Shown piece after piece: positions 7,570 through 13,893 of a stretch of DNA of 64,000 nt. Source of the DNA: Escherichia coli. Its GTDB lineage: Bacteria > Pseudomonadota > Gammaproteobacteria > Enterobacterales > Enterobacteriaceae. Position numbers and translations under genes: made by a program. The stretch is from NCBI RefSeq assembly GCF_003334255.1, contig NZ_QOWU01000021.1; one strand, written 5' to 3'. The notes below the pieces were generated by a model that saw only the letters and a list, made by a program, of their open reading frames with translations, made no database searches and was not told where the DNA came from. Each line of letters begins with the position of its first letter. The stretch's first letter is position 1.

Positions 7570-8466
7570 ATGGACATTTTTATTTCGAAAAAGATGCGCA
7601 ATTTCATTTTATTAGCGCAAACCAATAATATTGCCCGGGCGGCAGAAAAAATCCATATGACGGCTTCGCCATTTGGTAAAAGCATTGCCGCGCTGGAAGA
7701 ACAAATTGGCTATACGCTATTTACCCGCAAAGATAATAATATCAGCCTCAATAAAGCCGGACAGGAACTGTATCAAAAACTGTTCCCGGTTTATCAACGG
7801 CTTTCTGCGATTGATAATGAAATCCATAACTCAGGGCGTCGTTCACGAGAAATTGTGATTGGCATAGATAATACTTATCCGACAATTATTTTCGATCAGT
7901 TGATTAGTCTCGGAGATAAGTATGAAGGCGTGACCGCCCAGCCAGTTGAGTTCAGCGAAAATGGCGTTATCGATAATCTTTTTGACCGCCAGTTAGATTT
8001 TATTATCTCCCCACAGCATGTATCTGCACGAGTTCAGGAACTGGAAAACCTGACTATCAGTGAACTACCACCGCTGCGATTAGGCTTTCTCGTTTCTCGC
8101 CGTTATGAAGAGCGACAAGAGCAAGAGCTGCTTCAGGAGCTGCCCTGGCTACAAATGCGCTTTCAGAACCGGGCCAACTTCGAAGCAATGATTGATGCGA
8201 ATATGCGACCTTGTGGGATCAATCCAACCATTATTTATCGTCCCTACAGTTTTATGGCCAAAATCAGCGCCGTGGAGCGCGGACATTTTCTGACGGTGAT
8301 CCCGCATTTTGCCTGGCGACTGGTGAATCCGGCAACGCTGAAATATTTTGATGCACCGCACAGGCCGATGTATATGCAGGAATATCTTTATTCAATCAGA
8401 AATCATCGTTATACCGCCACGATGCTTCAGCATATTGCTGAAGATCGTGACGGGACGAGTCATTAA
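7570..8466 (+). CDS. ygfI: LysR-family transcriptional regulator YgfI
   Basis: ORF 7555..8466 trimmed to MDIFISKKMRNFILLAQTNNIARAAEKIHMTASPFGKSI (LysR-type HTH); stop overlaps convergent scpC stop. Confidence 0.88.
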   Translation: MDIFISKKMRNFILLAQTNNIARAAEKIHMTASPFGKSIAALEEQIGYTLFTRKDNNISLNKAGQELYQKLFPVYQRLSAIDNEIHNSGRRSREIVIGIDNTYPTIIFDQLISLGDKYEGVTAQPVEFSENGVIDNLFDRQLDFIISPQHVSARVQELENLTISELPPLRLGFLVSRRYEERQEQELLQELPWLQMRFQNRANFEAMIDANMRPCGINPTIIYRPYSFMAKISAVERGHFLTVIPHFAWRLVNPATLKYFDAPHRPMYMQEYLYSIRNHRYTATMLQHIAEDRDGTSH

Positions 8467-9941
8467 CCCAGCATCGAGCCGGTTGCAATTAAATTACGGT
8501 GTAAGTCGAAGACGTGGCTAAGATCGTGGTGAATATGTCCGCCAGGCGCATTTTCCAGATAGCGATGCAGATAATCCCGATACATAGGATGTGCACAATT
8601 ATCAATGATAGTGCGGGCGCGTTGAAGCGGGGAAAGACCGCGCAGATCGGCGATCCCTTGTTCGGTGATGATCACTTTGACGCTGTGTTCGCTGTGATCA
8701 ACATGGCTGCACATTGGCACGACGGTTGAGATCTTGCCTTCTTTAGCAATCGACGGGGCCATAAAGATCGACAGATACGCGTTGCGTTCAAAATCACCGC
8801 TGCCGCCGATGCCGTTCATCAGATCGACCCCGGCTACGTGTGTTGAGTTGGCATGCCCGTAAATATCAAACTCCAGGCCGACGTTCAGAGCGATGACGCC
8901 CAGACGACGGATGATTTCCGGGTTATTGGAAATCTCCTGCGGACGCAACACAATGCGGCTGGCAAAGTAATCCATATTGTCGTAAATCTTGCGCAGGGAA
9001 TCGGCCGAGATTGTCAGGCTGGAGGCGCTGGCCCCGCTGATTTTGCCGGTTTCCAGTAAATGCACCACCGATTCCTGTAGCACTTCCGAATACATCATAA
9101 ACGGAGGAATTACCGGGTTTTCCCCCAGACGCGCCATTACCGCATTATTGATATTGCCCACGCCACTTTGCAGCGGCAGAAATTCCGGCGGAATACGCCC
9201 ATGCGCCATTTCCTGCAATAAGAACGTGACCACGTTATCGGCAATCTGCTGGCACATGGGATTTTGCTTATCCAGCATATTACCGGCGTCGGGCAAGTTG
9301 GTTTCCACGACGGCGACAATCTTTTTCGGATCGATTTGCACATAGCGGGTACCGACGCGATCCATTGCATGGAAGATCGACACGCTATTGCGCCGCGGTG
9401 GCGCGCCAGGAATCACAATATCCGCCAGTTCTGCAACGCGCGGATCGTGATAGTGATTGAGTTCAATGATCACTTTCTTCGCCCGCAGCAGCCAGGTCGG
9501 CGCATTACCGATCCCGCTGGTTAACCAGACTCGACCATCCGGTGCCAGTGCCGATGCTTCAATGACGGCAACATCAATGTCGCCGAAGAAACCGTAATTG
9601 ACCATTTGCGCCACTTCGCTCAAATGCAGGTCAACGAAACTCACCGCGCCCTGATTGATCTTTTTACGTAAACCGGACGATGTTTGATATGGCGCACGCC
9701 AGGAAACAGCATCGGCGTCAGAAAGTACATCGTCAGCGGCGGCGCTGATTGACGCACCCGTCAGAAGGCGAATTTGATACGGCTTTTTGGCCTCATGCTG
9801 TTCGTTAGCTCTGCGGGCAATCGCGGTGGGTAGGGCTTTCGGCGAACCCGCCGGGGTAAAGCCGCTAAATGCCACCATGTCGTTATGCTGGATAATTTCT
9901 GCCGCTTCATTGGCGGTCATCCTTGTCCACTGAGTTTCCAT
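8463..9941 (-). CDS. scpC: propionyl-CoA:succinate CoA-transferase
   Basis: 492-aa ORF METQWTRMTANEAAEIIQHNDMVAFSGFTPAGSPK..., acetyl-CoA hydrolase/transferase family; last gene of sbm operon. Confidence 0.94.
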   Translation of the reverse strand: METQWTRMTANEAAEIIQHNDMVAFSGFTPAGSPKALPTAIARRANEQHEAKKPYQIRLLTGASISAAADDVLSDADAVSWRAPYQTSSGLRKKINQGAVSFVDLHLSEVAQMVNYGFFGDIDVAVIEASALAPDGRVWLTSGIGNAPTWLLRAKKVIIELNHYHDPRVAELADIVIPGAPPRRNSVSIFHAMDRVGTRYVQIDPKKIVAVVETNLPDAGNMLDKQNPMCQQIADNVVTFLLQEMAHGRIPPEFLPLQSGVGNINNAVMARLGENPVIPPFMMYSEVLQESVVHLLETGKISGASASSLTISADSLRKIYDNMDYFASRIVLRPQEISNNPEIIRRLGVIALNVGLEFDIYGHANSTHVAGVDLMNGIGGSGDFERNAYLSIFMAPSIAKEGKISTVVPMCSHVDHSEHSVKVIITEQGIADLRGLSPLQRARTIIDNCAHPMYRDYLHRYLENAPGGHIHHDLSHVFDLHRNLIATGSMLG

Positions 9942-11756: not shown

Positions 11757-13893
11757 GATGCTGGCTTATCAGATTCAGTACGTCGCGCACACTGTCGAGC
11801 ATAGGTGTACCTGGACCATAAATCGCCGCCACGCCGCGCTCTTGCAGGAAGGCGTAATCCTGCGGCGGAATGACGCCACCCGCGACCACGCAGATATCTT
11901 CGCGTCCCCATTTTTTCAGCGCTTCGACCAGTTCCGGGATCAGCGTTTTATGACCGGCAGCCAGTGAGGATGCGCCCACTACGTGAACGTCGTTTTCTAC
12001 GGCCAGGCGGGCGATCTCTTCAGGTGTAGAGAACATCGGGCTTAAATCTACGTCGAAACCGAGATCGGAATAGGCGCTGGCGATCACTTTCGCGCCGCGA
12101 TCGTGTCCATCCTGGCCCATCTTAGCGATCAGAATGCGCGGGCGACGACCATTGTCGGCAAGGAACTGCTCCGTTTGCGCAACAATGGCATCGAACTCGG
12201 AGGCCGATTTCTCAGACTGATGATAGCTTTGCGCAATCACGCCGGTAACACACTGGCTTGGCACCAGATAACGGTCGAAAGCGACTTCCAGCGCATCGGA
12301 AATTTCACCCAGGGTGGCGCGAACGCGAGCGGCATTAACAGCGGCAGCCAGCAGGTTTTCGTTATGCTGTGCGGCGTGAGTCAGGGCGTTCAACGCGGCG
12401 GTTACGGCGGCATCATCACGGGTGGCGCGAATGCGTTCCAGCGAAGCAATTTGCTCGTTACGCACCATCACGTTGTCGATCTCAAGTACATCGGTTTCGT
12501 CTTCGTGATCCAGTTTGTACTTGTTGACACCAACGATGACACGCTTGCCCTGGTCGATCAGCGACTGTTCGCGCGCTGAGGCCTCTTCGATCATTCGTTT
12601 TGGCAGACCTGCTTCGATCGCTTTCGCCATGCCACCGGCTTCGTCGATCTGTTGGATAATAGCTCTGGCTTGTTTGACGATTTGATCGGTCAGCGACTCA
12701 ATGTAATAGGATCCGGCCAGTGGATCGACGGTGCGGCAGAGTTCTGATTCTTCCTGGATGATGATCTGGGTGTTGCGGGCAATGCGTGCTGAGAAATCGG
12801 TAGGCAAACCAAGCGCTTCGTCAAAGGCGTTGGTATGCAGTGACTGAGTACCGCCCAGCGTCGCAGCCAGCGCTTCAATGGTGGTGCGGATAACGTTGTT
12901 ATACGGATCCTGTTCAGTCAGGCTCCAGCCTGAGGTCTGGCAGTGGGTACGCAGCGCCAGTGATTTCGGGTCCTGTGCGCCAAATCCACTGACCGCTTCG
13001 CTCCATAAATAACGTGCCGCACGCAACATGGCGACGTTCATAAACAGATCCATGCCGATGCCGAAGAAGAACGACAGGCGAGGAGCGAAGTCATCAATTT
13101 TCAGTCCGGCAGAGATTGCTGCTTTGATGTACTCAATCCCATCAGCGAGCGTAAATGCTACCTGCTGCACGCAGTTGGCACCCGCTTCACCCATGTGGTA
13201 ACCGCTGATACTGATGGTATTAAATCGCGGCATGTTGCCGGAACACCAGGCGATGATGTCGGCGATAATGCGCATTGACGGTTTTGGTGGGTAAATATAG
13301 GTGTTGCGGCAGAGGTACTCTTTGAGAATATCGTTTTGAATGGTGCCGGTCAGTTTATCAGGTGTAACACCTTGCTCTTCTGCGGCGACGATATAAAACG
13401 CCAGTACTGGTAGCACTGCGCCATTCATGGTCATCGAAACCGACATTTTATCCAGCGGGATCTGGTCGAACAGGACTTTCATATCTTCCACGGTGTCGAT
13501 AGCGACGCCCGCTTTGCCGACGTCGCCCGCCACGCGCGGGTTATCGGAGTCGTAGCCACGGTGGGTGGCAAGGTCAAACGCAACGGAAAGACCTTTTTGC
13601 CCGGCGGCCAGGTTACGGCGATAAAAAGCGTTGGACTCTTTTGCTGTTGAAAAACCAGCATACTGACGGATGGTCCACGGTTGGGCGGTATACATAGTGG
13701 CACGCGGGCCACGAACGTAGGGCGGCAAACCAGGAAGGGTACCTGTCACCTCCAGATTATCGAGATCGGCTTCGGTATACAGCGGCTTGATGGCGATCCC
13801 TTCCGCGGTTTGATGAACCAGCGAGTCGACAGTTTTCTCCCGACGGTTCAATTCCTTGTTGGCAAGCTGTTGCCACTCCTGCACGTTAGACAT
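11749..13893 (-). CDS. scpA: methylmalonyl-CoA mutase (sleeping beauty mutase), B12-dependent
   Basis: ORF 11749..13914 trimmed to [20 protein letters not shown]...; C-terminal B12-binding domain [21 protein letters not shown]. Confidence 0.95.

Follow-up and report, generated by a model that had tools for sequence, protein, structure and literature searches.

The Escherichia coli sbm operon and the convergent LysR-family gene srsR form a cassette inherited as a unit, with a probable operon 3'-end hairpin inside srsR

We analysed 64,000 nucleotides of Escherichia coli DNA (contig NZ_QOWU01000021.1 of assembly GCF_003334255.1, subsequently referred to as the window), which carry the four-gene sbm operon (scpA-argK-scpB-scpC) and, facing it, srsR (formerly ygfI), a gene for a LysR-family transcription factor. 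The locus is the known sbm operon of E. coli K-12, arranged tail-to-tail with srsR and with no intergenic space between them. This gene layout, first noted in an initial annotation made from the sequence alone, is already known, ordinary and catalogued, and by itself it adds nothing to the knowledge of a well-studied E. coli locus. What our analysis adds is that srsR and a promoter block upstream of scpA belong to a cassette found across genera, that a hairpin lies at the 3' end of the operon, and that a deletion affects the operon in about 20% of E. coli genomes. As a whole, we consider it likely that the locus is best explained as such a cassette, with a 3'-end hairpin written into srsR and, less certainly, with SrsR as its own regulator.

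A single scan for SrsR in a collection of genomes from 100,044 species yielded 42 loci. They belong to Escherichia, Citrobacter, Salmonella arizonae and diarizonae, the Klebsiella oxytoca group, Kosakonia, Yokenella, Pluralibacter, Superficieibacter, six Yersinia species and others. In all 42 species loci, scpC-scpB-argK-scpA is convergent with srsR and lies immediately beside it. The genes that flank the locus in E. coli (argO, yggE and argP) were not found at 12 of these loci, including those of Yersinia, Kosakonia and Superficieibacter, and the flanking open reading frames (ORFs) listed for five of the 12 differ among themselves. The operon and srsR thus remain together despite differing flanks, which indicates that the five genes move as one cassette. 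Together with the scpA promoter block, they make up a compact cassette that is passed on as a whole and occupies different positions on the chromosome from one enterobacterial genus to another.

More distant relatives could also be observed. A Sodalis locus displays the same gene order, with an SrsR that is 61% identical. In two Sodalis-like genomes (L042, 8907-9040, and L045, 10301-10488; one of them labelled Martelella alba), srsR is 61–64% identical and convergent with scpC. The gap between the two genes measures 128–186 nt, is G+C-rich and forms its own strong hairpins; the C-terminus of SrsR is extended and dissimilar. A Yersinia enterocolitica-type contig (L046, 3746-10296) harbors a second type of sbm operon, with ScpB 74% and ScpC 76% identical. 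It has no srsR downstream and no conserved block at the scpA promoter (PscpA), and a divergent gene of the IclR family is located upstream of its scpA. Here, another regulator seems to have taken the equivalent place in a related operon. A metagenomic relative carries neither scpC nor a LysR gene.

Within E. coli, a 7-kb stretch around the operon was matched in all 5,426 complete genomes. Of these genomes, 1,115 (~20%) lack the argK-scpB interior, and 5,406 have at least 80% of the length of the srsR region. Comparison with the locus of Nissle 1917 and similar strains (L002) shows a deletion of ~4.35 kb (window ~8617-12966; also 13575-13602) that eliminates scpB and argK completely, along with the greater part of scpC and the 3' portion of scpA. 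What remains is a 5' piece of scpA joined to the terminal 154 nt of scpC, with srsR, the junction between the two stop codons and the hairpin left intact. SrsR of Nissle does not differ from K-12 SrsR in its protein sequence. In the deleted strains, the scpA promoter would read via the short remnant straight into srsR, in antisense direction. Single strains carry IS1 insertions (NZ_OY754357.1, NZ_CP040090.1), one in scpB and one in srsR.

The initial annotation had placed both stop codons of the convergent pair in one palindromic TTAA, and reading of the sequence confirmed this. The TTAA occupies 8463-8466 on both strands, with the srsR stop TAA at 8464-8466 (plus strand) and the scpC stop TAA, seen as TTA, at 8463-8465 (minus strand), and the two coding sequences share these 4 nt. 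A 4-nt stop-stop overlap of the form YTAR is kept in 35 of the 42 species loci, from Escherichia to Yersinia. Its spelling is TTAA in 20 of them, CTAA in 6, CTAG in 6 and TTAG in 3. All four permitted spellings are therefore in use, and the junction has kept its geometry through changes of the stop codons. The 4-nt overlap is no accident of K-12. The other junctions among the 42 loci are longer overlaps (15–40 nt), one junction with zero gap and one gap of 128 nt. Since the stop codons overlap and leave no intergenic space, the 3'-end signal of the operon must sit inside a gene.

We propose that this signal lies within the last ~15 codons of srsR, in the form of a conserved stem-loop that appears to form best in the scpC-sense RNA. 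The initial annotation, right about the TTAA overlap, had missed this hairpin entirely. The stem-loop (8414-8453, minus strand), found as inverted repeats and by folding, comprises 18 bp with one bulged base and a loop of 3 nt. It falls within srsR codons ~282-295 and, on the scpC-sense strand, starts ~10 nt beyond the scpC stop, and thus has the position and the G+C-rich stem expected of an intrinsic terminator. We surveyed 46-nt windows at every 2 nt along both strands of the 64-kb window. The fold of the stem-loop (-28.7 kcal/mol) was the most stable one found (mean -8.8, sd 3.9), and only 3 of the 63,954 sampled windows reach this value.

In an alignment of 42 hairpin sequences, 83% of the cells are paired and 123 cells are G-U. 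Covariation was evident as well: 11 of 21 pairs have changed on both sides, compared to 6.3 ± 1.4 in column shuffles (2 of 500 shuffles reach 11). Phylogenetic relatedness can inflate this shuffle test; slid-partner controls, which retain relatedness, gave 4–8 pairs changed on both sides. In 35 of the 42 sequences, the scpC-sense RNA folds more stably than the srsR-sense RNA. This strand bias stems from G-U pairs and points to an RNA function on the operon transcript, not to a DNA palindrome or a constraint on the protein. Where the two genes are separated by an intergenic gap, the hairpins are found in that gap, and srsR has no hairpin of the E. coli type within its coding sequence. The hairpin is probably the 3' terminator or stabiliser of the operon. 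It would end the sbm transcript or protect its 3' end, and it may limit antisense read-through into srsR. By its placement, the hairpin would neatly illustrate how a 3'-end signal can be encoded within the coding region of the gene facing the transcript.

A number of observations weigh against this role. In K-12, the hairpin runs into UAUAACGA... without a canonical U tract, the tail being UAUAACGAUGAUUUCUG, and a terminator scan made no call. An outer helix that would bring a U run beside the stem is paired in only ~50–60% of the sequences. Downstream of the stem, the C/G ratio is about 0.8–1.2, with no C-rich, G-poor stretch resembling a Rho utilization (rut) site; a rut-like bias of C over G is absent downstream of either the srsR or the scpC stop. 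Synonymous variation over the hairpin codons is 0.91–0.93 against a gene mean of 1.16, which is a modest reduction, and these codons are not the stretch of lowest synonymous variation in srsR. Yersinia and two other lineages have a different or shifted hairpin. The alternative stem in Yersinia is directly followed by UUUUU and is more like an intrinsic terminator. Finally, we found no 3'-end records for either transcript at the junction, with zero matches in the supplements of PMC12207403.

Two stronger claims about the hairpin were rejected. It is no canonical terminator by way of the outer helix, since only about half of the sequences pair there, and strong synonymous-site constraint over its codons does not hold, the reduction being so modest. 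A second, small terminator-like hairpin, GCGCTCCACGGCGC followed by TGATTTTGG (8267-8280, minus strand), is found within srsR in antisense orientation, ~185 nt beyond the scpC stop. It could serve as a back-up stop for sbm read-through.

That the convergent transcripts must overlap, as the initial annotation had it, follows from the 4-nt coding overlap, and published RNA sequencing (RNA-seq) agrees. The pair scpC-ygfI is among 165 convergent 'excludons' found by ExcludonFinder in at least 50% of 58 MG1655 transcriptomes (PMC12288877); the transcript overlap is thus already in print. A terminator scan of the plus strand detected no terminator-like site after the srsR stop for ~1.6 kb (before ~10089). 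With no signal there comparable to the hairpin, srsR transcripts probably run antisense into scpC. Such a run would account for the pair being scored in RNA-seq as overlapping convergent transcripts.

At the other end of the operon, upstream of scpA, lies a predicted promoter/operator block (~13935-14005, minus strand) with the consensus CGGCAAAAAACGACG-N10-12-TTTTTTGCTGGCGACAA-N9-AAAAAGCTCACCGTA. It contains an inverted repeat, GCAAAAAA (13994-14001)-N17-TTTTTTGC (13969-13976), followed by TGGCGACA, and a candidate weak promoter composed of a -35 element TTGCTG (13967-13972), a 17-nt spacer and a -10 element AAAGCT (13944-13949). A sigma-70 promoter scan gave no match upstream of scpA on the minus strand, which fits a weak or activator-dependent promoter. 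A sigma-54 reading of TGGCGACA was rejected by inspection because the -12 TTGC element is absent. The block shows almost no variation in 41 of 42 loci with sequence upstream of scpA (41 species and the MG1655 copy), and it is also present where the upstream neighbour differs. In the two Sodalis-like loci, where srsR is kept, a degenerate version is seen, and sbm operons that lack srsR do not have the block. The promoter and operator roles of the block are inferred; its co-occurrence with srsR is the pattern that would be expected of an operator for a co-inherited regulator.

Further upstream, a CRP-like site (14022-14037, minus strand) reads CTTGA-N6-TCACA in K-12 and TTTGA-N6-TCACA in most other genera. 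It agrees with 9 of 10 consensus positions in most genera and keeps a fixed distance of 56–58 bp from the candidate -35 element, which would put it near -92.5 if the candidate promoter assignment is right. A CRP-like match in a single genome is not above chance (31 found, 27.7 expected). The site suggests catabolite control of the sbm promoter, and the scpA promoter, proposed to be weak and activator-dependent, may also need CRP.

These features bear on the proposal of the initial annotation that YgfI (SrsR) is a candidate regulator of the operon. The proposal gains from the co-inheritance of the cassette and from the operator-like block, and loses from published binding data without a site at sbm. 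The recognition and activation sites of LysR regulators are usually located upstream of and overlapping the -35 element. Adjacency and co-inheritance, as known from LysR regulators and their targets, were found in the 42 species loci and in one Sodalis locus. Co-inheritance combined with an operator-like block is better evidence of a functional link than adjacency alone. Less certainly than for the hairpin, we propose that SrsR could be the cassette's own regulator and act at the inverted-repeat block upstream of scpA.

Several observations speak against such a role. Genomic systematic evolution of ligands by exponential enrichment (gSELEX) with SrsR recovered 10 sites, none of them at sbm, together with the box TCAGATTTTGC; the targets were yfdO/P, fucAO, bluR, paa, cdgI and dinJ (PMC9181523). 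The gene has also been named DhfA on the basis of RNA-seq and chromatin immunoprecipitation with exonuclease treatment (ChIP-exo), which connected it to dhaKLM and formate/hydrogenase genes. The ChIP-exo list contains dhaK and mdtL only, and again no site at sbm (PMC8464067, supplement). No sbm genes appear among the YgfI-dependent differentially expressed genes in the text or supplements of PMC9068703, and the published studies characterising ygfI/SrsR/DhfA do not mention them. The binding experiments were performed with C-terminally tagged SrsR, with no candidate ligand added and in K-12 only; the scpA block of K-12 departs from the multi-genus consensus. A search for TCAGATTTTGC with up to 2 mismatches gave 32 matches in the window, a number within chance (23.8 ± 5.2 expected), none of them upstream of scpA. 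By our own reading, the published box agrees with the scpA block at 8 of 11 positions at best, which is a weak match. A 48-nt weight matrix built from PscpA did not consistently score the srsR upstream region. The arrangement of the genes is unfavourable, too: srsR is convergent with scpC and not divergent, which is atypical for LysR regulators, and it shares no regulatory region with the operon, the scpA promoter being 5.4 kb away at the far operon end. Moreover, about 1,100 E. coli genomes lack the operon and still carry srsR, suggesting that this gene has a life of its own in the species.

A motif shared by PscpA and the srsR promoter, as would fit autoregulation, had seemed conceivable from a visual likeness (AAAAA-TGAC...T-run); it was rejected because the weight matrix gives no support. 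Taken together, the regulator hypothesis is neither shown nor refuted, and no direct test of PscpA contradicts it. In its full form, SrsR would be the missing dedicated activator, acting on GCAAAAAA-N17-TTTTTTGC as operator, probably with CRP at about -92 and with antisense coupling to the operon via the hairpin. The silence of the operon in the laboratory would then reflect an absent SrsR co-inducer and not a dead promoter. We put this combined proposal forward tentatively and consider it less likely than not to hold.

It is possible, and in our estimate only a little short of an even chance, that srsR and the operon are neighbours without any regulatory meaning and that the scpA block is a site for another factor or the core promoter. 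SrsR would then be a stationary-phase and stress regulator with targets elsewhere (yfdO/P, fucAO, bluR, dhaKLM) that shares a tightly packed segment with a cryptic operon. The 10 gSELEX and 2 ChIP-exo sites outside sbm agree with this, as does the lack of any mention of sbm genes in the ygfI-deletion RNA-seq paper. The persistence of srsR in 5,406 of 5,426 genomes when 1,115 miss the operon interior, and a Nissle SrsR identical to that of K-12, can be read in the same way. Furthermore, zero intergenic distance hinders separation by recombination, and this alone would inflate the synteny of srsR and the operon. However, the cassette occupies several unrelated sites and is accompanied by srsR, and by no other regulator, at each of them, and the more distant sbm operon without srsR has an IclR-family regulator gene of its own. 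The promoter block co-occurs with srsR, and the negative binding data come from tagged, ligand-free experiments in K-12 alone, where the block is off consensus.

Regulation by SrsR as a protein is not the only way in which the two could be linked. The srsR and operon transcripts may invade each other and lower each other's level through polymerase collision or RNase III, as in an antisense 'excludon', with the hairpin tuning how far the sbm transcript invades srsR. The 4-nt coding overlap, the conserved junction geometry, the plus strand free of terminator-like sites from the srsR stop to ~10089 and the entry of scpC-ygfI in the published excludome are all in keeping with this. Nevertheless, we think it unlikely: that entry shows overlapping read coverage and not reciprocal regulation, loci with gaps of 128–186 nt keep the same gene pair, and the operon is barely transcribed in the laboratory, so that interference may be negligible. 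It seems more improbable still that the hairpin lacks an RNA function and is a by-product of the C-terminal amino acid sequence of SrsR, or a DNA palindrome such as a protein-binding site. The hairpin does lie wholly in coding sequence with mildly reduced synonymous variation, most stem positions are highly conserved with few independent compensatory events, and relatedness can inflate the shuffle test. However, codons are unlikely to produce by chance a near-perfect palindrome of 40 nt with the most stable fold found in the 64-kb window. The slid controls, with relatedness kept, are clearly lower, and neither a DNA palindrome nor a protein constraint would predict G-U pairs that consistently favour the scpC-sense RNA.

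The sbm operon has been under study since 2000. Its name stands for 'sleeping beauty mutase', and it is silent or weakly expressed and needs added B12 (PMC3850637). The silence in the laboratory is described in a further report as well (PMC3850637, PMC5512728). The operon had been annotated as the complete pathway from succinate to propionate. The identities and the intactness of the genes bear this out; the completeness of the pathway, however, is contested, because the methylmalonyl-CoA epimerase step is reported to be missing (PMC5512728). According to that study, the mutase yields (R)-methylmalonyl-CoA, the decarboxylase is expected to use the (S) form, and propionate formation from glucose required a foreign epimerase (PMC5512728). 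No recurring extra gene was seen in the listed flanks of six non-E. coli cassettes, the ORFs of which were not scanned against family models.

Coordinates of the genes were taken from the ORF list, from reading of the sequence and from the RefSeq annotation of the MG1655 (E. coli K-12) record, converted to window numbering; the 7-kb stretch is 100% identical to MG1655. The srsR gene (7570-8466, plus strand) encodes a protein of 298 aa, annotated as a LysR-family transcription factor in the identical MG1655 record, that scores 635 bits against the NCBIfam equivalog NF047842 (cut-off 425). The operon genes all lie on the minus strand: scpA (sbm; 11749-13893) for the B12-dependent methylmalonyl-CoA mutase of 714 aa (NF006944, 1252 bits, cut-off 876), meaB/argK (ygfD; 10761-11756) for the mutase-associated GTPase of 331 aa (NF006958, 494 bits, cut-off 329), scpB (ygfG; 9965-10750) for methylmalonyl-CoA decarboxylase of 261 aa (NF008506, 487 bits, cut-off 257) and scpC (ygfH; 8463-9941) for propionyl-CoA:succinate CoA transferase of 492 aa (TIGR03458, 753 bits, cut-off 659). 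None of the four Sbm proteins or SrsR is truncated or interrupted by an internal stop, and all score above the curated NCBIfam equivalog or subfamily cut-offs. The scpA model spans residues 5-713 of 714, as expected of a mutase with its B12-binding domain, and MeaB/ArgK, YgfG and YgfH follow the mutase downstream on one strand, which is the order of an sbm operon. The ORF list, RefSeq and the NCBIfam scores thus agree with the initial annotation that scpA, argK, scpB and scpC are intact. The spacing it had given is borne out as well, with an 8-nt overlap of scpA and argK (11749-11756) and a 10-nt gap between argK and scpB (10751-10760); scpB and scpC are 23 nt apart.

An Rfam scan of 7300-14300 (E ≤ 1) gave zero matches, that is, no known riboswitch or RNA family, including those for cobalamin. 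Upstream of scpA, argP (14097-14990, minus strand) is annotated in the identical MG1655 record. A palindrome, GCCTGATATGTGCTATCAGGC (14063-14083), is located between the argP stop, which it closely follows, and the scpA promoter block, and is probably the argP terminator. At the same position, Citrobacter, Salmonella and Klebsiella have GCCGGATAAGGCG sequences similar to repetitive extragenic palindromes. Between argP and rpiA, an ORF of 77 aa (~15132-15362, plus strand) is annotated as 'LysR substrate-binding domain-containing protein' and is apparently a LysR-family gene fragment.

Co-inheritance, the operator-like block and the hairpin together offer a route to the question of why the sbm operon 'sleeps', a question that recurs in the metabolic-engineering literature (PMC3850637, PMC5512728). 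If SrsR and a ligand indeed activate the native promoter, native induction could be used in strains for propionate, 1-propanol or odd-chain products. The natural role of the pathway, and its discarding by strains of the phylogroup B2 type, would become approachable as well.

Compared with known systems, the hairpin resembles the protective 3' stem-loops of Rho-dependent transcripts (Dar and Sorek 2018, PMC6061677) in being a stable stem-loop without a U tract. It differs from them in that it is embedded in a convergent coding sequence and no rut-like stretch follows it. As in LysR systems with an adjacent target, a catabolic operon is strictly co-inherited with a LysR gene and has a candidate weak promoter with an A/T-rich dyad that lies upstream of the candidate -35 element and overlaps it. 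Unlike in those systems, srsR is convergent at the 3' end of the operon, and the published SrsR sites are elsewhere in the genome. The locus shares with excludons the convergent genes with overlapping transcripts, and scpC-ygfI is explicitly listed among them (PMC12288877), an entry that shows overlapping read coverage and not mutual repression. In contrast to the mean intergenic distance of 95 nt published for E. coli excludons (PMC12288877), the two coding sequences themselves overlap here.

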